The position numbers and the translations under genes are program-made. Shown here one piece after another: positions 814 through 12,712 of a DNA stretch of 64,000 bases. Within the stretch, counting starts at the first letter, position 1. Each line of letters starts with the position of its first letter. Source of the stretch: a virus (Duplodnaviria > Heunggongvirae > Uroviricota > Caudoviricetes); the IMG/VR virus record IMGVR_UViG_2667527592_000002; one strand, 5' to 3'. Under the pieces are notes generated by a model, which saw nothing but the letters and a program-made list of their open reading frames with translations, searched no databases and was not told the origin of the DNA.

Positions 814-1389
814 ATGTTAATGGCGAACGATAACGCATATGCAGAAGAAGATCTCATTTTGAGTGACTTCATAGGGAAGCGGGAACGCTGGACCCAAAAG
901 CGAGAGGAACTTTACGCCTCATTAGTTCGCAAAGGCGTCAATATCGAAACCGCACAAAGCGGCGATATGACAGTGGTAAGCGTTGGATTGCACGGTGTAA
1001 GCGTGTCAGCAATCAATCATGAGCCATACGTTGCGTTATCCGAGTCAATGGTAAGGTTAGTTAAGTTCCTGAAGTACACAGAAGCGAATAATGTAATCAT
1101 TGGCAAAAAGAATATCCCTTTTTCCTCGGCTTTTTACTGGATGATGAAAGGGCTTGATGCCCGGCGGACATCATGGCCTAAAGGGAGCTATATATCGATG
1201 TTCCGTGGCAGCATTGGCAGCAAAGAAAAGCTCTTCGAATTCTTGCCGGAAGAGGCATTCGATATTGTGGAAGGGTGCGATGTGATGGTGATGCCTCGCC
1301 TGGTAATGATGAATGGGGATTTACAGGCGCAGACAGACTGGTTTGCAACTGGTGTGGATATTATCGCGACTGACTGGGAGGCTTTCTGA
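814..1389 (+). CDS. hypothetical protein (191 aa)
   Basis: ORF track; ATG preceded by AAGGAG; no recognisable motif. Confidence 0.55.
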   Translation: MLMANDNAYAEEDLILSDFIGKRERWTQKREELYASLVRKGVNIETAQSGDMTVVSVGLHGVSVSAINHEPYVALSESMVRLVKFLKYTEANNVIIGKKNIPFSSAFYWMMKGLDARRTSWPKGSYISMFRGSIGSKEKLFEFLPEEAFDIVEGCDVMVMPRLVMMNGDLQAQTDWFATGVDIIATDWEAF

Positions 1390-2282: not shown

Positions 2283-3643
2283 GTCTGGTTAATTGGGAGG
2301 AGCACCGCGCCCGCTTTATAGCGTTGCGTGAAGAAAAAGGGATCACTGTAAAGGAATACTGTGAGGAGCATGGCCTTAGCTTCAATACAGCCAGAAAGCA
2401 TCTCAATATGAAAAAAAATGAGGTGCGGTCGCAGGTAAAGACAACAAAAAAAAGCACCAAATCACCTGAAAAAAAACGGGCGGGAAGAGCAACAAAAAAG
2501 CTGGAAGAGGGTGCAGAAAAAACAAAATTTACAGAAATTGACAATTCGCAGGGTGCAGGTTCTTTCCGAAGTATGCCAAGAAAGAAAACTTCGGATCATG
2601 AAAGTAATTCCAATAATAACAATGAGATAAAAGAATCTGTCAGGAGATCATTGCGCGAAAAAATGGCGAAAATGATCCCCGAAGAAGATAAAAGCGCCCC
2701 AAAAATTGAGGGATCTTCAGCAATGATCCCTGGCGGTGCTGTGCAACGTGCCACATTGCCCACTACGAATGTGGCTCGCGACATGATGAAGAACGGCGCA
2801 GAAGAACACCTGCGGTTAGCAATTCAAATGGCGCAAGAGCGCGCACTTCAGTATCAAAGCATTGTTGATCAGGAGGCCGAACGTCTACAGGCGGAAATAG
2901 ACGCCTTGGGCGATAAAGAGCCAGAAGGAATGCACCCTGGGCAGCGCCTTCTCGGTCTAATCAGTGACGCGGCCTACTACATGAATGATTTTATCAGTAG
3001 GTTGGCAGCTATATATCAGTCCGAACAAAAGCTGCGACAGGGGGATGAAAAGCTTCGTCAGAGCGCTCGCCAGCAAGCATTCAAAGAGGCTGAGGCCAGA
3101 GAAAAACTCGAATTAGCACGCCTACAGGCCGAACAGCGTGGCAAAGAGATTGAATATCGCATTGGCGCTGACGCACGCGCTGCCAGAGTTATCGCCGCCG
3201 CTATACGTATGCGTGAGCGCGAGGAACTGGATGATATCGGTGTTGCTGAATACATCGAGCGCCAGGGGGTCAGCGTCCCGGCTATCCTCGCGGCGCGCGC
3301 GGCGAAAGCTATCACTCTTCTCGAACCACCTGTTTCTGACGTCAATGATGTTGATGATGAACAGCTGGACAAAGAGGCAAGGGAGTTTGCAACGCTTCAG
3401 GCTAACCATCCGCAATGGCTGGCAGAGCGCCGGGCGGATGTGGCAACCATTGTTGAAGAATTGGGGTGCGGAGATTACGACCGCAATGGCGAGCGTAAAG
3501 CTGGAGAATTCGAGGCCAGCGACGAAGAGCTGGATATTGACCCTTCGGCAACGGCTGAAATTTACGGTGATTATGATGCATCTGATGCAGGGTATGACGC
3601 CGGAGATGATGATATCGCGATAGAACCGCCGGAGGATGATTAA
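2279..3643 (+). CDS. putative terminase small subunit (PacA-like), acidic C-terminus
   Basis: Immediately upstream of and overlapping the large terminase; N-terminal HTH-like segment; internal GATC cluster; assignment by position, not by recognised sequence. Confidence 0.45.
   Translation: MSLVNWEEHRARFIALREEKGITVKEYCEEHGLSFNTARKHLNMKKNEVRSQVKTTKKSTKSPEKKRAGRATKKLEEGAEKTKFTEIDNSQGAGSFRSMPRKKTSDHESNSNNNNEIKESVRRSLREKMAKMIPEEDKSAPKIEGSSAMIPGGAVQRATLPTTNVARDMMKNGAEEHLRLAIQMAQERALQYQSIVDQEAERLQAEIDALGDKEPEGMHPGQRLLGLISDAAYYMNDFISRLAAIYQSEQKLRQGDEKLRQSARQQAFKEAEAREKLELARLQAEQRGKEIEYRIGADARAARVIAAAIRMREREELDDIGVAEYIERQGVSVPAILAARAAKAITLLEPPVSDVNDVDDEQLDKEAREFATLQANHPQWLAERRADVATIVEELGCGDYDRNGERKAGEFEASDEELDIDPSATAEIYGDYDASDAGYDAGDDDIAIEPPEDD
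2594..2728. other. GATC cluster (5 sites in 135 bp), candidate pac-type packaging site
   Basis: GATC at 2594, 2646, 2674, 2712, 2725, mostly as TGATC[CT] hexamers; P1 pac lies within pacA and is built from Dam-methylated TGATC[AG] hexamers. Confidence 0.35.
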
Positions 3644-5151
3644 TGGCTGGCGGGCGCAAGATTAAATGCGTCACCAGCGATCCACGCTGGCGCGATATGG
3701 TAATCAAATACCGCTACAACTTTACCCAGGCTGTTGTCGATATTTTTGGGATGTTCCCCTCCCACCAGCAGCAGCAGATCATTCAGTCAGTGCAGGAAAC
3801 GGGGAGTAGGACGACCGTCACGTCCGGACACGGAACGGGGAAGTCGTCCCTTACCGCGATGTTGCTGTTGATTTTTATGATCCTGTTCCCCGATGCCCGT
3901 GTCATCATTGTTGCTAACAAGATAGGCCAGGTAAAAACAGGCGTATTCAAATACGTTAAACAGTATTGGGCGAATGCAGTTAAGCGTCATGGGTGGTTGC
4001 AGACCTATTTTGTCCTCTCTGACACCATGTTTTATGAGCGCTCCCGTAAGGGGATTTGGGAAGTTCTCTGCAAAGGTTATCGACTCGGCAACGAAGAAGC
4101 GCTGGCGGGGGAACACGCGGCACATTTGCTTCTAATTCTGGACGAAGCATCTGGTATATCTGATAAGGCGATCGGCGTAATGACCGGTGCTCTTACTGAA
4201 GAAGATAACCGGATGTTGATGCTATCCCAGCCAACAAGGCCAAGTGGTTATTTCTACGATTCGCACCATTCTCAAGCAAAAACCCCAGACAACCCGAAAG
4301 GGATCTGGACAGCAATTGTTCTTAACTCGGAAGAATCACCGTTCGTCACACCACAATTCATCAAGCAGAAGCTTCTGGAATATGGCGGGCGCGATTCTAT
4401 TGAGTACATGGTCAAGGTGCTTGGTCAGTTCCCACGAGAAATTAACGGCTATTTGCTTGGTCGTGATGAATGCGATCGCGCTGCTCGCCGCAAGGTGTTG
4501 TTGGAGAAAAACTGGGGATGGGTGGCAACGGCTGACGTTGGTAATGGGCGAGATAAGTCGGTCCTCAACATCTGCAAAGTATCTGGTCACAGGGATAAGC
4601 GGCGCGTTGTTAACTTTAAGGTAATGGAGATGCCTGGCACTATGGACCCATTGGCCTTTGCTGACTTCATATATAACGAATGTACGCCGGAAAAATACCC
4701 GAATATAACAATCGCGGTTGATGCTGATGGTTTTGGTTCTGATACGTGTGCGCAGTTGGTGCGTCGTGGTGCGAACCCGGTACGTATTCGGTGGGGAAAA
4801 CCCATGTTTGCGAACAAAGACAGGGAGCGATTTGTTAATCAGCGTGCCTACGCAAATATTATGGCGCGTGATGCCATAAAGTCAGGGCGTATGCGGATAG
4901 ACAGTGACCCTAAAACGGCAGAGCAAGCGTCAAAAATCCCCTTTTTACTGAATGAAGAAGGGAAAATGGCGATGATGCGCAAAGAGCACATGCGGCAAAA
5001 GCTAAACATCAAATCGCCTGACCGATGGGATACCTACTGCTTCACTATGCTGGTGGACTATGTGCCTGCTAATGAAGATATTGGTGCCGAAATGGCAACT
5101 TTCCGAGATCAGGTTCTGGCGGATATCGAAATGCCGGATCTGGATATATAA
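3643..5151 (+). CDS. terminase large subunit (PacB-like)
   Basis: 502 aa; Walker A SGHGTGKS, Walker B LLLILDEAS, C-terminal acidic nuclease-like region; start overlaps pacA stop. Confidence 0.7.
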   Translation: MAGGRKIKCVTSDPRWRDMVIKYRYNFTQAVVDIFGMFPSHQQQQIIQSVQETGSRTTVTSGHGTGKSSLTAMLLLIFMILFPDARVIIVANKIGQVKTGVFKYVKQYWANAVKRHGWLQTYFVLSDTMFYERSRKGIWEVLCKGYRLGNEEALAGEHAAHLLLILDEASGISDKAIGVMTGALTEEDNRMLMLSQPTRPSGYFYDSHHSQAKTPDNPKGIWTAIVLNSEESPFVTPQFIKQKLLEYGGRDSIEYMVKVLGQFPREINGYLLGRDECDRAARRKVLLEKNWGWVATADVGNGRDKSVLNICKVSGHRDKRRVVNFKVMEMPGTMDPLAFADFIYNECTPEKYPNITIAVDADGFGSDTCAQLVRRGANPVRIRWGKPMFANKDRERFVNQRAYANIMARDAIKSGRMRIDSDPKTAEQASKIPFLLNEEGKMAMMRKEHMRQKLNIKSPDRWDTYCFTMLVDYVPANEDIGAEMATFRDQVLADIEMPDLDI

Positions 5152-6425: not shown

Positions 6426-6459
6426 ATAACTTTAAATAATTGGCATTATTTAAAGTTAG
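6426..6459. other. lox-like recombination site (13-bp inverted arms, 8-bp spacer)
   Basis: ATAACTTTAAATA-ATTGGCAT-TATTTAAAGTTAG; arms 12/13 complementary and about 10/13 identical to loxP arms; 150 bp upstream of cre-like gene. Confidence 0.7.
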
Positions 6460-6610
6460 GCTATAATCATGTGTAGATGAACAGTGTTGACATCACTGAA
6501 AATACGTGCCTCGAATCAAAGGCTTGTATTTTGAAAATTAACTTATAGCTACCCTGTCATTTTTATATTTTTCGCGTAGCGTCATCTGTATATAGAGGTG
6601 TAATAGTTTC

Positions 6611-7639
6611 ATGGGTGAATTAATTATCTCTGGCAGTTCCGGTGGTTTTCTGCGCAACATTGGCAAAGAGTACCAGGAAGCCGCAGAAAACTTTATGCGG
6701 TTCATGAATGACCAGGGGGCTTATGCGCCGAATACTCTGCGCGACCTCCGGTTGGTGTTTCATTCCTGGGCGCGCTGGTGTCACGCTCGCCAGCTTGCCT
6801 GGTTTCCGATCTCACCAGAAATGGCCCGCGAGTATTTTCTTCAGCTGCATGATGCCGATCTGGCTTCGACCACCATTGATAAGCACTACGCCATGCTGAA
6901 CATGCTGCTTTCGCATTGTGGCCTTCCGCCACTTTCGGATGATAAAAGTGTTTCTCTGGCTATGCGGCGCATCCGGCGCGAAGCAGCAACTGAAAAAGGC
7001 GAACGAACAGGCCAGGCTATACCGCTGCGGTGGGACGATCTGAAACTGCTCGACGTCCTGTTGTCCAGGTCAGAACGGCTGGTGGACCTGCGCAACCGGG
7101 CTTTTCTCTTTGTTGCATACAATACGCTGATGCGTATGTCGGAAATCTCGCGTATTCGTGTAGGAGATCTGGACCAGACAGGTGACACTGTCACGCTACA
7201 TATTTCACACACGAAGACAATAACGACCGCCGCCGGGCTTGATAAGGTGCTTTCCCGTCGCACTACCGCTGTGCTGAATGACTGGCTGGATGTTTCCGGG
7301 CTTCGCGAACATCCTGACGCAGTGCTGTTCCCGCCGATACACCGTAGCAATAAGGCCAGGATCACGACAACGCCCCTTACTGCACCTGCAATGGAGAAAA
7401 TATTCAGCGACGCCTGGGTGTTGCTGAATAAAAGAGATGCTACGCCAAACAAAGGAAGATACCGGACGTGGACCGGGCATAGTGCACGCGTCGGGGCCGC
7501 TATTGATATGGCTGAAAAGCAGGTGTCTATGGTGGAGATCATGCAGGAAGGAACCTGGAAGAAACCGGAAACACTTATGCGGTATCTTCGCCGTGGCGGC
7601 GTGTCTGTGGGGGCTAATAGCCGCCTGATGGATTCGTAA
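6611..7639 (+). CDS. cre: Cre-type tyrosine recombinase
   Basis: 342 aa; long collinear similarity to P1 Cre including GHSARVGAA...W...Y active-site region and NTLMRMSEISRIRVGD block. Confidence 0.9.
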   Translation: MGELIISGSSGGFLRNIGKEYQEAAENFMRFMNDQGAYAPNTLRDLRLVFHSWARWCHARQLAWFPISPEMAREYFLQLHDADLASTTIDKHYAMLNMLLSHCGLPPLSDDKSVSLAMRRIRREAATEKGERTGQAIPLRWDDLKLLDVLLSRSERLVDLRNRAFLFVAYNTLMRMSEISRIRVGDLDQTGDTVTLHISHTKTITTAAGLDKVLSRRTTAVLNDWLDVSGLREHPDAVLFPPIHRSNKARITTTPLTAPAMEKIFSDAWVLLNKRDATPNKGRYRTWTGHSARVGAAIDMAEKQVSMVEIMQEGTWKKPETLMRYLRRGGVSVGANSRLMDS

Positions 7640-7642
7640 ATT

Positions 7643-7658
7643 AAATTTCTAACACATC
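7643..7658 (+). promoter_or_regulatory. operator-like motif (AAATTTCTAACACATC)
   Basis: Recurring motif; just downstream of cre stop, upstream of 7713 operon. Confidence 0.4.
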
Positions 7659-7712
7659 TTTTTAGATTAACGCCTTTGCTGTAAAGTACCCTCGCCTATT
7701 TAGGAGGGTGCT

Positions 7713-8057
7713 TTGCAGAGTCAAATCACGGAATCAAGACGCTTCAAGGTGGATGGTTACACCGTAACCTTCGCCGCTGGTGTTAAGAACAGTCATGCTG
7801 TCGTTGTGTTCGGCATCATGACCGGGCTTGAGGCCGTCCCTGTGTTTACCCTCGAAAAAAACTGGCGAAATCTGGAGGAAGCAGAAAGCTACGTCCGGAA
7901 AGTAACCATCATTGCCGCCGAAAAACTCCTGGCCCACTATCAGGAAAATTATCGCACTATGGTCGAGAAGATTAATCTCGCTTTCACTCGCCCCACTACC
8001 GGCTTTATTGCACCGGATACTAATGCAGGTCGATATCCTGCAAGGGGGCGTCGGTGA
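7713..8057 (+). CDS. hypothetical protein (114 aa)
   Basis: ORF track; TTG start 5 nt after AGGAGG. Confidence 0.45.
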   Translation: MQSQITESRRFKVDGYTVTFAAGVKNSHAVVVFGIMTGLEAVPVFTLEKNWRNLEEAESYVRKVTIIAAEKLLAHYQENYRTMVEKINLAFTRPTTGFIAPDTNAGRYPARGRR

Positions 8058-8530
8058 AAACTTATTACCCATCTCTGAATTGTTACCCGTCTTCCTATCC
8101 AGAATTATCCGGGAAGCTGTTAGCTCTATTAGCTAAAGCACCTACGGAATGGTTTAAGCCAGTCGTTATCAATCCACACTTCCTGGATTACGGATCTGTT
8201 CGCACTCGTAACGAACTCAAAAACCTACTGGCGCATGGATTCATTCGACACCGTGCCGGGAAAGGCTATCAGTTAGCGATTGCGCCAGAAGAGGCCATGC
8301 GGCTATTCGCATATCGTGACAGCCAGACAAAAGCTCGGGTAATAGCTCAAATACTTCATAACGGCAGCACCTATGCCCGCCAGTTTGGCGGCGACACGTC
8401 GCAGTTCTTGCGGGCGGTGCGATCGCTGGAGGAGCAAGGAGTTATTGAAAGTTCCTGTCTTCCTGTTCCTACCGTTCCACATATCAAACGTCGGGTTTAC
8501 ACCTTCACGCAGAGAGCTAAAAAACAATGA
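8054..8530 (+). CDS. hypothetical protein (158 aa)
   Basis: ORF track; GTG start overlapping upstream stop. Confidence 0.45.
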   Translation: MKTYYPSLNCYPSSYPELSGKLLALLAKAPTEWFKPVVINPHFLDYGSVRTRNELKNLLAHGFIRHRAGKGYQLAIAPEEAMRLFAYRDSQTKARVIAQILHNGSTYARQFGGDTSQFLRAVRSLEEQGVIESSCLPVPTVPHIKRRVYTFTQRAKKQ

Positions 8531-9021
8531 TTTACGTAAAAGTGAAACGCCTACATCCGGCAGCAAAACTTCCAGCTTATGCCACCTCCGGATCGGCGGC
8601 GATGGATTTTGAGGCTGTTGAAATAACACCATGCGTCGATAGCAATGGTGAAATTTCCTCAAGCTGGTGGGTGCATACCGGACTGGCTATGGAGATCCCG
8701 CCCGGCTGGTGTCTGAAACTCTATCCGCGATCCGGATTGGGCTGCAAAAAACATACTCGCCTGGCTAACTGCGTAGGAATTATCGACTCCGATTATCGCG
8801 GTGAAATCATGGCAAAACTGATTACTGATCCCGGCGGGGAAGGCGTTTGTCTCAAGCCTGGAATGGCTGTCATGCAAGGCATTTTTGAGCGTGTTGAACA
8901 AGTCTCACTAGTCGAGGTTGAGGAACTCAACGAAACGGAACGTGGTGCTGGTGGCTTTGGTAGCACATCGGAAGGCCACTTTGAAATTAAGCGTTCACCG
9001 CTTCAGTACGAAAAGTTATAA
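8527..9021 (+). CDS. dut: dUTP diphosphatase (dUTPase)
   Basis: 164 aa; motifs GIIDSDYRGE and RG(A)GGFGSTS typical of trimeric dUTPases; ATGA overlap with upstream gene. Confidence 0.85.
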   Translation: MIYVKVKRLHPAAKLPAYATSGSAAMDFEAVEITPCVDSNGEISSSWWVHTGLAMEIPPGWCLKLYPRSGLGCKKHTRLANCVGIIDSDYRGEIMAKLITDPGGEGVCLKPGMAVMQGIFERVEQVSLVEVEELNETERGAGGFGSTSEGHFEIKRSPLQYEKL

Positions 9022-9035
9022 GCAGAGAAAAGACT

Positions 9036-9713
9036 ATGAATAACATGACAACGAAAGAGCTTTTGACGGCACTTCCAAAATACAAAAGCCATAAAACAGT
9101 TCGTGCCTCAAAAATCAAAGATATCGAAATTATCGCCCTAATGGATGTGGTCCTTCTTTGCAACATCGAAGTCGTTGAGCCAGAAGGGGTAAAAGTCCAT
9201 GTTGATAAAATGTTTTTGCAAAAACACCGACCAGAAATTGGCGGATATCTGGTCGCTTATGAGGACGGATCTCTGTCCTATTCACCAGAAAAAACATTTG
9301 AAGAAGGCTTTAGTCGGACTAACGACTTCTTCGAAAATGGGGCATTGCTCAGCATTGAAGGTCACAATGGGGTGACATTCATTACAGCCAGGGACGTAAC
9401 TATTTCTGCTGGCGGTATCGCTACTCTACAAGAAGAAATCGACCTTGAAGCAGCCGACTTTTCTGACGCGCTGATGTGGCTGAAGGATGGCAAGAAAGTT
9501 GCTCGACGCGGGTGGAACGGCGAAAACCAATTCTGCTGGCTGGTTCCTGAAGGACAGTACCCGGCACGAATGGAAGCCATTAAGGGATATTTCCCCGGCG
9601 ACCTCGTTCCGTATGGTGCTTATTTCGCCTTAAAAAATGCACAAGGTGTAGTTGTTCCGTGGGTTCCTTCTGTAGGCGACTTACTGGCATGTGACTGGTT
9701 TGTAGTGGAGTAA
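9036..9713 (+). CDS. DUF2829-domain protein (Tad2-like C-terminal domain) with extra N-terminal domain
   Basis: C-terminal ALMWLKDGKKVARRGWNG ... DLLACDWFVVE matches the DUF2829 hallmark as I recall it; N-terminal 140 aa unassigned. Confidence 0.6.
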   Translation: MNNMTTKELLTALPKYKSHKTVRASKIKDIEIIALMDVVLLCNIEVVEPEGVKVHVDKMFLQKHRPEIGGYLVAYEDGSLSYSPEKTFEEGFSRTNDFFENGALLSIEGHNGVTFITARDVTISAGGIATLQEEIDLEAADFSDALMWLKDGKKVARRGWNGENQFCWLVPEGQYPARMEAIKGYFPGDLVPYGAYFALKNAQGVVVPWVPSVGDLLACDWFVVE

Positions 9714-9719
9714 TTTGAC

Positions 9720-10526
9720 ATGGAAAGCACCAAAACAATTCAATACCGCTTGCGTAATGGCCTGCTGGTGGCTGTTAACGCCGACATGTCACTGCCGTTT
9801 GACACGATTGAACGCACTATCATGACGTATCTCGGCTTTAATGAAGAACTGAATGAAGAGCATGGCGTAGCTATATGGAGTGATGCAGACAGCGGCGTTC
9901 GTCGTTACATCACCGCCAGGGGCAAAGACTACTCTCTGGAAGAACTGTTTGCCCTTGCGCAGTCTTTCGAATGTGTAGCATTAGACCTGTTTAATGATCC
10001 TGCTATAGCGCAACGACTTATACGCGAGCTTGGGCTATCCGTTACACCAATTATCTTTAAAAATGGCAGCCTGACTGGCACATGGCGCGTAGAACGCATC
10101 TCAAACTACCTTCCATATAACCGACAGTTAAATGGAGTAATCTCCGGCGTTAATCAGCCCGTAGCGTGTGAAAATGTAAATCTGGTTGTCGCTGTTTTGG
10201 CAACCGCATGTCGTGTTATCGGTTTGGCTAAACAGGCATTTATTCATTTCCCAAATGGTGCAGAAGGTAGCGCAGAGATTATCGCGTGTGATTTCGAATT
10301 TACCTGGATGCTACGCGAATATCTGGACCAAACAGTGTTCCGCGCCGAAGAACTGGATATGTATATCACGTCAACGATTCCTGATGATGTGCGTGCTGAA
10401 GCAATCGCCACAGCAAGGGCCAAATGCCGTGCGGCGATTGCAGAACAGGCCAAAGAAGAACAGTCCGATGAAGTCGCGGCAGATGTGGAGGCAGAGGTAG
10501 CGGAGGATGCTGATGCTGACGCCTAA
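9720..10526 (+). CDS. hypothetical protein, acidic C-terminus (268 aa)
   Basis: ORF track; GGAG RBS. Confidence 0.5.
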   Translation: MESTKTIQYRLRNGLLVAVNADMSLPFDTIERTIMTYLGFNEELNEEHGVAIWSDADSGVRRYITARGKDYSLEELFALAQSFECVALDLFNDPAIAQRLIRELGLSVTPIIFKNGSLTGTWRVERISNYLPYNRQLNGVISGVNQPVACENVNLVVAVLATACRVIGLAKQAFIHFPNGAEGSAEIIACDFEFTWMLREYLDQTVFRAEELDMYITSTIPDDVRAEAIATARAKCRAAIAEQAKEEQSDEVAADVEAEVAEDADADA

Positions 10527-11613
10527 AAACATCACCGAATTACCAGAGTGGAGAGAGCTGGTAAGCAAATATAGCCATGACTGGGCATTAGCAGCAGAAG
10601 AGTTGATGGGTGTTAAGTTAACCCACCAGCAAAAGCTAATTGTTGAGGCGATTCAACAAAAAGGTTCAGCAGTCAGCGTCACCACTCCTGAAGGGATAGG
10701 CCAAAAGACGGTTATCGCTATAATTAGTATTCTTTATACAATCCTGATGCCTGAGTCTAAAACGGTTATTGTTTCCCCAAAGTTCTATAATTGTCGCAGG
10801 CAAGTTATCCAATACATAAGTACGTATTGGGATAGAGTCAGTAACAGAATCCCATTGCTGGGAGAATATTTTAAAGTCGATGGAAACGGCATCAATCATC
10901 GTTACCGGGAATATTGGGGCTGCGAAATTAAGCCATATCACCGAAATTATGAGGAAGGTTTCGGTGGATATTATGCTGAACATCTTTTAATCATTGTTAC
11001 GGAGGCGGCTCTTGCTGGCGATCGGCTATTCAGCATGTTAAGAGCATCGTTAGTAAGTGACGATTCACGTATACTTTTAATGTCCGCTCCTTCAGAGGAG
11101 GAGCATGGACACTTTTACGATTCCCATCATGGTCGTGCTAAATCAGAAGAAAATCCATGTGGTATTTATACAGCCATCAAGCTGAACGCAGAAGATACCC
11201 CCATTATTTCTCAAGGTTATCTTGATAACATTGCAGAAATATATGGTGGTAAAAACAGCGATTACTACCGTCGTATGGTTCTTGGTGAGTTTCCTGGTAT
11301 TAGGGGGGCTGTTCTTGAATCAGATATGCCGAAGACAATGCGCTTTTCGATGCCTGATGGTAGTGAATGGATAATGCCATTACGAGTGATAGCCCGGCAT
11401 CATGCACAGCACCACGCCAAAAAACATGGCGTTACAACATTGGAGTGGTTGAAATCGCACACCATTCCACTCTTCACTGCAGATCACAATGCTATCGTTG
11501 AGTGGGCAAAAACAATTCCGTGGGAGAATGTTGCTGAATACGCCCACATGCTAAAACCGCCGAAAGACAGGCAAGAAATTAGCTGGCTGACAGCAGAAAA
11601 AATCATTGAGTGA
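10507..11613 (+). CDS. terminase-large-subunit-like ATPase-domain paralogue with degenerate Walker motifs, no nuclease domain
   Basis: 368 aa; collinear blocks shared with 3643..5151 (HLLII.TEA, RILLMS.P, GHFYDSHH, YGG, GEFP); Walker A GIGQKT, Walker B IVTE. Confidence 0.6.
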   Translation: MLMLTPKNITELPEWRELVSKYSHDWALAAEELMGVKLTHQQKLIVEAIQQKGSAVSVTTPEGIGQKTVIAIISILYTILMPESKTVIVSPKFYNCRRQVIQYISTYWDRVSNRIPLLGEYFKVDGNGINHRYREYWGCEIKPYHRNYEEGFGGYYAEHLLIIVTEAALAGDRLFSMLRASLVSDDSRILLMSAPSEEEHGHFYDSHHGRAKSEENPCGIYTAIKLNAEDTPIISQGYLDNIAEIYGGKNSDYYRRMVLGEFPGIRGAVLESDMPKTMRFSMPDGSEWIMPLRVIARHHAQHHAKKHGVTTLEWLKSHTIPLFTADHNAIVEWAKTIPWENVAEYAHMLKPPKDRQEISWLTAEKIIE

Positions 11614-11648
11614 TAGTAGGAAGCCCGCCTGGTTGAGCGGGCTTCTTT

Positions 11649-12029
11649 TCAAATATTGGAACCATATAGTTCACGTAGTTTTTCCGCTACTGAAGATACG
11701 GGGATTTCACCAGTTGCAGCCCCCACCGCAAGTTCCACCAGCACGGGAGAATCATATACCTGTATACCGTTACGGCGTAGAAATAGCAGCGCACTGTTTA
11801 GCGCGGTACGCTTATTGGCATCATTGAATATATGCCCTCTCGCAGTAGCCACCAGGTAGGTTGCGGAGACTTCGAAAAGGTCGGTGATCTCTTCGTAGGC
11901 AACTCTGGCCTGAACTCTCCCGATAATGGCCTCTGCCCTACCCGGATCTGACATTCCCGGCAGGCCGCCGTAGCGGCTTATATTCGCATCATGAAGCGCA
12001 ATAAGTTCTTCCGGTGATATATGCCTCAT
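11649..12029 (-). CDS. doc: Doc toxin (Fic-family kinase), phd-doc addiction module
   Basis: 126 aa, near-identical to P1 Doc as I recall it ([22 protein letters not shown]... [11 protein letters not shown]). Confidence 0.95.
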
Positions 12030-12250
12030 TATCGGTTAACCAGTTCCTTGTTGGTGGAGTCCAGGGTGTCAAACAGGGATGCAAATTCAGCATCCAGCGC
12101 CGCCTTTTTGTAGGCTTCGAAAGTAGCCTTGCTGACAATTACTGCTGGTTCACGGCCTCTGCGGGTGATTTCAACCTCTTCCCCGGCTTCAACATTGTTG
12201 AGCAATTCAGAAAGGTTGCCGCGCGCGGTACGGAAGTTAATGGACTGCAT
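12029..12250 (-). CDS. phd: Phd antitoxin
   Basis: 73 aa from ATG 12250 ([15 protein letters not shown]...), matches P1 Phd; the track's GTG at 12256 is a 2-codon extension; overlaps doc start. Confidence 0.9.
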
Positions 12251-12322
12251 AAACACCTCGTGTACTCGTTATGTGTACACAATCATAAACTTCACAGGCA
12301 TAAAGCACCAGCACTTTGCAGC

Positions 12323-12712
12323 TTAAATGACCGGACAATCATCAAACTCCCCACTTCGGGCATCATTGATGACATGAGTGATCACACCAAAAACAGCATT
12401 ACTACCCGTGTAACCATCGTCATCTACTGGTAACGCCTCTTTCTTCCCGGTGCTTAAATCCTCCAGGTGCTGGCGCGGATACTTTCGGTATCTCTTTATG
12501 CGATATTCACCCTCCATAGCGCACACAAGCAGCGAACCATCAACTGGAGTAAGCGAAGAATCAACCACCAGCAAAGCACCCTGCAATATTCCCTCACGGT
12601 GATGGCTGTCTGCCGCCCGCATGAAGTATGTCGCTGATGGATGCCTGATTAGTTGCTGATCAAGAGAAATTCTGCTTTCAACATAGTCCGCCGCAGGAGA
12701 AGGGAAGCCCAT
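12323..12712 (-). CDS. humD: UmuD'-like protein (HumD-like, peptidase S24 fold)
   Basis: FPSPAADYVESRISLDQQLIRHPSATYF resembles UmuD; directly upstream of phd-doc as in P1. Confidence 0.8.
   Translation of the reverse strand: MGFPSPAADYVESRISLDQQLIRHPSATYFMRAADSHHREGILQGALLVVDSSLTPVDGSLLVCAMEGEYRIKRYRKYPRQHLEDLSTGKKEALPVDDDGYTGSNAVFGVITHVINDARSGEFDDCPVI

Follow-up and report, generated by a model that had tools for sequence, protein, structure and literature searches.

The window analyzed here is the whole 64,000-nucleotide (nt) stretch of viral DNA IMGVR_UViG_2667527592_000002, and all coordinates refer to it unless stated otherwise. Its open reading frame (ORF) at 9036..9713 (+) encodes a 225-residue protein in which an N-terminal OB-fold, a homologue of Dec, the decoration protein of phage L, is joined through a linker to a C-terminal domain of the Tad2 sponge family. 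Based on this architecture, the protein is probably an intracellular sponge for an immune signal, either derived from ADP-ribose (ADPR) or a cyclic nucleotide, carried on an OB-fold partner domain. The sponge itself is ordinary; the partner domain is a well-defined lead.

By sequence match, the window is part of a D6-like, P1-family phage-plasmid. It carries the recombinase gene dre and a rox recombination site, positions 6500-11700 share 97% identity with Escherichia phage D6 across 71% of their length, and the segment 6500-13000 matched 1,341 PLSDB plasmids, mostly from E. coli, 73 of which cover at least 80% of the segment.

The Tad2 assignment is already known, and the OB-Tad2 architecture has been noticed before. 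NCBI and UniRef label these proteins DUF2829 or Tad2 family, and in a phage-plasmid survey, 93% of the D6-like and 56% of the P1-like sequences carried "Tad2 AcrIIA7 (anti-Thoeris)". Two domains found fused to Tad2, Acb4 and PF21825 (Sequestin), were shown by Yirmiya et al. to be sponges; their search for fusions ran through Pfam, in which this OB domain has no model. The new finding is the identity of the N-terminal domain as a Dec-like OB-fold homologous to the N-terminal domain of RyR Tad (RyR, ryanodine receptor). In the papers searched and read, we found no statement of an association of this OB domain across sponge families.

Domains of the fusion protein

Sequence, fold, and pocket residues all place the C-terminal domain (residues ~138-225; 9447..9710, +) in the Tad2 sponge family. 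The original prediction, made from the sequence alone, had taken ALMWLKDGKKVARRGWNG and DLLACDWFVVE as hallmarks of DUF2829. Both are present in the 225-residue product, and the Pfam check is supportive: residues 141-224 match PF11195 ("Tad2-like", formerly DUF2829) over model positions 2-73 of 73, with an E value of 1.6e-22 and 80.3 bits against a cut-off of 25. The product is 98% identical to a 453-member cluster named "DUF2829 domain-containing protein [E. coli]". A sequence search of the PDB returned ModTad2 (9eib/8v3e; E 6e-20), HgmTad2/AcrIIA7 (4e-10), and SPO1 Tad2 (7e-9). The AcrIIA7 entry 9kzr (158 aa) was matched only over its residues 43-150, which indicates that N-terminal extensions are compatible with the Tad2 fold.

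The comparison with Tad2 structures that had been proposed as a check also came out in favor of the assignment. In the AlphaFold2 (AF2) monomer model, the core of the Tad2 domain has a predicted local distance difference test (pLDDT) score of ~90 and shows the N-terminal helix, antiparallel sheet, and insertion after beta2 of the Tad2 fold. SPO1 Tad2 (Gp34.65; 8SME/8SMF) and HgmTad2/AcrIIA7 (8KBI-8KBM) share with the window protein the Pfam family, the fold, and the conserved residues around the ADP-ribose core. In SPO1 Tad2, this core is held by W25, N26, W73, S76, and D79, with which W160, N161, W209, S212, and D215 of the window protein align. W160, N161, S212, and D215 likewise align with W21, N22, S90, and D93 of HgmTad2, where mutation of W21/N22 and S90/T92/D93 abolishes binding of glycocyclic ADPR (gcADPR). 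Across 40 aligned homologues, W160, W209, and D215 are invariant.

Elsewhere in the window, upstream of lpa- and pacA-like genes, lies a second and divergent Tad2-like gene (814..1389, +; 191 aa). Its product matches PF11195 at residues 103-190 (E 1.1e-9; 39 bits, cut-off 25) as well as phrog_7362, and has an unrelated N-terminal extension of ~100 aa. It contains SWPKG in place of GWNG, and the pocket asparagine is not conserved. The element thus carries two DUF2829 genes.

The N-terminal extension noted in the original prediction is present, and it need no longer be called unassigned. It is an OB-fold homologous to Dec (residues ~12-95; 9069..9320, +), followed by a linker (residues ~96-137; 9321..9446, +). 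The AF2 model places a five-stranded barrel and one helix at residues ~14-95, with pLDDT 86-93. When a profile built from 22 N-domains was compared to all PDB sequences, Dec was the sole match (E 3.2e-5), extending over the whole OB-fold, and Foldseek paired the OB domain with Dec at an E value of 4e-4 and 26% identity. A Pfam scan of the 22 N-domains gave nothing meaningful, and the OB family is absent from Pfam. Its conserved motifs read LPxYKxHKxVRAxKI and P..GGYLV.YEDG.LSYSP..F..G(Y/F), and the polar residues that are near-invariant across 142 members correspond to H19, K20, Y71, Y75, D77, S81, S83, and E89 of the window protein. Dec (PDB 6E3C) has the homologous OB-fold including a GGYL...F(E)..Y motif; it differs in its structural role, binding capsids in trimeric form, and in lacking the conserved H-K and Y.DG..S.SP motifs of the window family. 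Unlike the gene for Dec, the window gene lies in an accessory gene string and bears a sponge domain.

The linker is modeled poorly (residues 98-137, pLDDT <50) and ends in a near-invariant EIDLEAAD. It occurs as two alleles and is missing from many relatives. When the profile includes the linker, its positions 61-125 can be aligned with Dec residues 58-121 (E 6e-5), a match that is weak beyond the OB-fold and runs into the low-pLDDT segment. The stretch of Dec reached by the linker (residues 100-121) is presumably its trimeric beta-helix.

A comparable arrangement of an N-terminal small beta domain and a C-terminal sponge is found in RyR Tad (gp68 of Pectobacterium phage vB_PatP_CB1; bioRxiv 10.64898/2026.06.04.730250), although the sponge module there is a ryanodine-receptor Repeat12-like helical domain and not Tad2. 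The N-domain of CB1 gp68 is a shortened version of ~70 aa: hhalign aligned columns 13-93 of our N-domain profile with gp68 residues 2-70 at a probability of 94.6% (E 7.2e-8). The two groups are linked by P0209, a gp68 homologue (E 1e-39) with the RyR module and a full-length OB domain.

Candidate ligands and allelic variation

We infer the oligomeric state, ligand, and expression timing of the protein, as well as any role of its OB domain. In the proposed mechanism, 9036..9713 would encode an intracellular anti-signaling protein of the D6-like phage-plasmid. The Tad2 module (residues ~138-225) would assemble as a Tad2-type homotetramer, and its inter-protomer pockets would sequester a nucleotide-derived alarm signal of the host defense, such that the effector is never switched on. 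The ligand is most likely an ADPR-derived product of a TIR (Toll/interleukin-1 receptor) protein; His-ADPR of type II Thoeris is placed first, and 3'cADPR or N7-cADPR are further possibilities. Cyclic mononucleotides or dinucleotides may be accommodated in a second pocket, which the variable beta2-beta3 insertion forms.

The closest characterized relative is ModTad2 (MoTad2, from a Myroides odoratus prophage; PDB 8V3E apo and 9EIB with His-ADPR), a single-domain protein of ~89 aa to which the window protein adds an N-terminal extension of 137 aa. The two are 45-46% identical (E 6e-21), whereas identity to SPO1, Hgm, and Spt Tad2 is 30-41% (E 1e-9 to 1e-11), and 33-35% for SPO1 Tad2 alone. This placement in a ModTad2 clade reflects overall identity, compared among the ModTad2, SPO1, Hgm, and Spt proteins.

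ModTad2 leaves type I Thoeris unblocked and sequesters the His-ADPR of type II Thoeris, and its second pocket, at the A-C interface, binds the Pycsar signals cUMP and cCMP. Specificities elsewhere in the family are different: SPO1 Tad2 is a tetramer that sequesters gcADPR, another Tad2 homologue binds N7-cADPR and 3'cADPR, and HgmTad2 binds cyclic dinucleotides through a long beta2-beta5 insertion. Given that ModTad2 is its nearest characterized relative and that the ADP-ribose pocket residues are retained, the window protein most likely binds an ADPR-derived TIR product. The original prediction was thus right about the Tad2 sponge family and too narrow in naming gcADPR only, as the nearest relative binds His-ADPR and cUMP/cCMP.

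The beta2-beta3 insertion region forms the second ligand pocket in both HgmTad2 and ModTad2. In the window protein, this hypervariable insertion (residues ~167-195; 9534..9620, +) does not reach the length of the dinucleotide-binding insertion of HgmTad2 (41 residues), and its own length and much of its sequence are shared with ModTad2. On the strength of the shared insertion, we tentatively rank His-ADPR first among the candidate ligands. Types I and II Thoeris are both present in E. coli, making them suitable host targets. TadIV-1 (Nat Commun 2026) was considered as a further relative and rejected, as it belongs to an unrelated sponge family.

Alleles of the gene in P1/D6-like elements are mosaic. 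Among those with a Tad2 core that is 97-100% identical, the beta2-beta3 insertion is just ~50% identical, and at least four insertion cassettes of differing length are visible in the alignment. Similarly, alleles with an identical or nearly identical Tad2 core have OB domains that are only about 54-65% identical. The divergence of insertion and OB domain beside a conserved Tad2 core suggests recombination or diversifying selection at these two places.

The gene is kept in most D6-like elements. SJ46 and Ro157c2YLVW encode the same 225-aa protein with ~98% identity, located after ssb. A 281-aa protein of SJ46, considered as a different architecture, was rejected as the 225-aa protein with an over-extended annotated start. 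An interruption of the fusion gene by IS1 of P1 was not confirmed, as no P1 record matched, and interruption was seen only in RCS47. P0023 (306 aa) joins a tail-fiber repeat (PF03406) to the middle of the OB domain.

Several observations weigh against an OB-Tad2 sponge that acts on an ADPR-derived or cyclic-nucleotide signal. An identity of 46% to ModTad2 does not fix the ligand, since Tad2 specificities vary widely, and SPO1 T78, in the pocket region, is replaced by G214. Among 84 tested sponge homologues of three families, 19 inhibited none of seven systems, and Hadary et al. deliberately left Tad2 homologues that carry a 6E3C-like or PF21825 domain out of their screen of 84 proteins, for a reason that is not stated. 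The N-domain of RyR Tad alone (residues 1-86) is inactive against type I Thoeris (bioRxiv 10.64898/2026.06.04.730250). The gene is also dispensable or damaged in some relatives. In D6, orf114 (L001:2594-3034) has lost the entire OB-fold by in-frame deletion, with the first 20 residues joined to the linker to give a 146-aa linker-Tad2 protein; the RCS47 copy breaks off at about residue 152, beside an annotated inverted repeat; and P0056 (241 aa; 15 sequences, 4 contigs) is a dut-Tad2 fusion, the result of a deletion that runs from the dut end into the linker. P0056 and P0023, both homologues from E. coli contigs, look like products of rearrangement rather than designed architectures. The D6 allele is a natural domain deletion that is usable experimentally.

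The OB-fold family and its role

A search of 1.84 billion representative proteins with the N-domain profile gave 5,473 matching clusters at E<=1e-3, of which 3,464 remained at E<=1e-10. The four top scorers, the giant proteins P0135, P0136, P0138, and P0273 (2,182-4,559 aa), are spurious: they contain cadherin/VCBS-type repeats "GGTIVIAADGSYSYTP" that mimic GGYLV.YEDGYLSYSP. Given such false positives, 5,473 is an upper bound. Typical members are 83-300 aa in length. Of 147 OB domain hits, 43 are standalone proteins (83-125 aa), 83 have the OB domain at the N-terminus with a C-terminal extension, 15 have it at the C-terminus, and 4 have it internally.

A Pfam scan of 142 representatives of the OB family defines the partner domains. 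Sequestin (PF21825) occurs in 21, Tad2 (PF11195) in 12, Acb4 (PF13876) in 4, and the Acb2/Tad1 hairpin (PF24729) and the RyR module (P0209) in one each; the others are three unrelated single hits. The OB domain is accordingly a common partner of five sponge families, and its recurrent partners are sponges only. The order can be reversed, with Tad2 preceding OB in P0091, and further homologues have Sequestin after Tad2 (P0062, P0073, P0106) or a second OB-like repeat in mid-protein. Tad2 is also one module of the known sponge-sponge fusions Acb4-Tad2 (Pasteurella phage Pm86), Tad2-Sequestin, and Acb4-Sequestin; in these, both modules are proven sponges, whereas the partner in the window protein is an OB-fold.

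Sponges are exchanged among three related Klebsiella Lastavirus phages. At one early locus just downstream of repressor/cro-type regulators, SopranoGao encodes OB-Tad2 (L004:3986-4582), LASTA encodes OB-x-Sequestin (L007:1486-2361), and ZX1 encodes OB-Sequestin (L008:1486-2010), such that the OB domain is constant and the sponge module varies. In Dolphis and Bas106, the OB-family gene sits amid small accessory genes. Overall, in D6-like, P1-like, Lastavirus, lambdoid, and Pseudomonas phages, the gene is found among accessory or early genes and not in a head module.

These distributions bear on what the OB-fold contributes. It is possible, if rather unlikely, that it binds a different signal from Tad2, perhaps one that is yet to be described, so that one polypeptide would block two defense pathways in the manner of Acb4-Tad2 and Tad2-Sequestin. 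Such a role would account for fusion to five sponge families and to nothing else recurrently, for the frequency of standalone OB proteins, and for the position of OB genes in early or accessory regions of unrelated phages. It is also favored by the near-invariance of the polar residues over 142 diverse members and by the divergence of OB alleles (54-69% identity) beside an identical Tad2 core, and the same logic of fusion led to Sequestin. Arguing against a second binding activity, residues 1-86 of RyR Tad, the sole homologue tested, were inactive against type I Thoeris and provided a domain-swapped dimer interface. So does the D6 allele, which has dispensed with the OB domain in frame and kept the Tad2 part.

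The RyR Tad crystal, in which the N-domain is a domain-swapped dimer that is dispensable for Thoeris inhibition (bioRxiv 10.64898/2026.06.04.730250), instead fits a purely architectural role, with the OB-fold giving the attached sponge oligomerization, solubility, or stability and having no ligand or target of its own. The prevalence of N-terminal OB domains in multidomain proteins (83 of the 147 hits) and the swapping of sponges behind a constant OB domain in Lastavirus phages are consistent with this possibility, which we nevertheless consider doubtful. Tad2, Sequestin, and Acb4 oligomerize unaided, frequent standalone OB genes would be hard to explain, and the strongly conserved polar residues, of a type expected at the surface, point to a functional site. 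For the intracellular sponge proposed here, the OB module (residues ~12-95) would most likely contribute self-association and would probably also have a function of its own.

It is very unlikely that the protein is structural, i.e. a Dec-like capsid decoration that displays a Tad2-like domain on the surface of the virion. The OB-fold is homologous to Dec, with a weak extension into the trimeric beta-helix region, and some homologues are annotated as "capsid decoration protein" or "head-tail adaptor". However, the window gene is packed in a string with dre and dut and not in a head module, its counterpart in SJ46 follows ssb, the Lastavirus genes are among the first after the repressor/cro-type regulators, and those of Dolphis and Bas106 are surrounded by small accessory genes. 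Moreover, the linker is missing from many relatives, the domains to which the OB-fold is fused are intracellular sponges, RyR Tad works within the cell, and a sponge on the capsid exterior would never meet its ligand. It is this accessory or early context in five unrelated phage groups, together with the intracellular partners and a ligand out of reach, that makes a role in capsid decoration unlikely.

E. coli and Salmonella carry type I CRISPR systems and are not known to have type II. That the DUF2829 domain acts like AcrIIA7 against type II CRISPR-Cas is highly improbable because, although HgmTad2 was first reported as AcrIIA7 and the name persists in the PDB and in the survey tool label "Tad2 AcrIIA7", this activity is not reproducible: in the hands of Li et al., neither HgmTad2 nor its homologues inhibited Cas9, whether in vitro or in vivo.

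Gene context and implications

The fusion gene lies in a string of genes downstream of dre (6611..7639, +), which encodes a tyrosine recombinase (PF00589, E 5e-17), the Cre analogue of phage D6. A recombinase had been predicted at this position and is present. It is Dre: the gene has 97% DNA identity to that of D6, where it is annotated as "similar to P1 gene cre". Upstream of dre is the 32-bp rox site (6426-6457, +), a half-site of which is annotated in D6. The sequence at 6426..6467 (+) reads taactttaaataattggcattatttaaagtta and combines rox with a promoter-like site; in a promoter scan, its TTGGCA-16-TATAAT was the best sigma-70-like match of the region (11/12), with the -35 hexamer within the rox spacer. 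This is a possible start of the transcription unit, and given the position of the hexamer, Dre binding could hamper the transcription of dre itself and of the genes that follow. No match to the P1 C1-operator consensus ATTGCTCTAATAAATTT was found within the window with up to 3 mismatches allowed.

Between 7713 and 11613, adjacent ORFs overlap or lie no more than 15 bases apart. The first encodes a 114-aa homologue of D6 orf117 (7713..8057, +; phrog_1968, E 4e-48) from a TTG start with AGGAGG just before it. The second encodes a 158-aa homologue of D6 orf116 (8054..8530, +; phrog_6669, E 7e-98) and shares 4 bases with each adjoining ORF. It is followed by dut, encoding a dUTP diphosphatase (8527..9021, +), which is identified by PF00692 (E 2e-14) and the NCBIfam equivalog NF001862 (122.6 bits against a cut-off of 103), in agreement with the dUTPase neighbor expected by the original prediction. 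After the fusion gene come an IsaA-like ORF of 268 aa (9720..10526, +) and a truncated paralogue of the PacB-like large terminase, TerL (10507..11613, +). The three ORFs that had been listed as unassigned (7713..8057, 8054..8530, and 9720..10526) all have strong PHROG matches and are thus real genes. A terminator-like hairpin with a T-run at 11627..11652 (+) follows the last gene of the string. With the promoter-like site at rox at one end and this hairpin at the other, both matches to consensus only, the genes from dre to the terminator probably form one transcription unit.

The IsaA-like ORF is a conserved partner that follows the fusion gene downstream in D6-like as well as P1-like elements. 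Its family comprises only 14 clusters, and those with a named source are from Enterobacteriaceae; structural comparison gave no informative match. The TerL paralogue had also been predicted correctly: it is 34% identical over 269 aa to the PacB-like TerL at 3643..5151 (E 1e-52), and both match phrog_5902. It retains only the ATPase-like N-domain, the C-terminal half being gone. The Walker A lysine is replaced by glutamine (GTGKS to GIGQK) and the Walker B aspartate by threonine (ILDEA to IVTEA), so the protein is probably ATPase-dead. This gene is absent from D6, in which pdcA occupies the position. It is pure speculation that the paralogue is a decoy for TerL-sensing defenses or a regulator of packaging.

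Beyond the Tad2 domain, the description of this string as an anti-defense islet is a hypothesis only. In Pfam, NCBIfam, and PADLOC scans of the string ORFs, only dut was assigned by NCBIfam or PADLOC, and 7713..8057 and 8054..8530 were without matches; a PDB sequence search with the IsaA-like ORF and the TerL paralogue gave no matches. The other ORFs in the string thus have no defense-related match in Pfam, NCBIfam, PADLOC, or the PDB, and the Tad2 domain is the only one to which an anti-defense function can be assigned, rather than one of several neighbors. The region varies among relatives, which fits an accessory hot spot. Downstream, on the opposite strand, a Doc/Phd-type toxin-antitoxin pair and a UmuD-like (HumD) gene (11649..12256 and 12323..12712, -) are arranged as in D6 and P1 and are ordinary content for an element of this type.

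Sponges have repeatedly led to new immune signals, gcADPR through Tad1 and His-ADPR through ModTad2, and fusion partners of sponges have themselves proved to be sponges, as in the case of Sequestin. The OB domain, with thousands of clusters and five sponge families as partners, was left unexplained in the RyR Tad study and is a testable lead; dissection of OB and Tad2 could reveal a new anti-defense function or a new signal. D6/P1-like phage-plasmids of pathogenic E. coli, Shigella, and Salmonella commonly encode the protein, which may aid their establishment in Thoeris-positive hosts. We also raise the possibility, which is fairly unlikely on present evidence, that the OB-fold is a new and very widespread phage anti-defense module, acting either as a sponge for a signal still to be identified or as a general partner that every major sponge family needs against some host counter-measure. 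If this is correct, the P1/D6 protein would inhibit two targets, and variation in host defense would be tracked by the rapid evolution of its OB alleles and of the insertion cassettes in Tad2.

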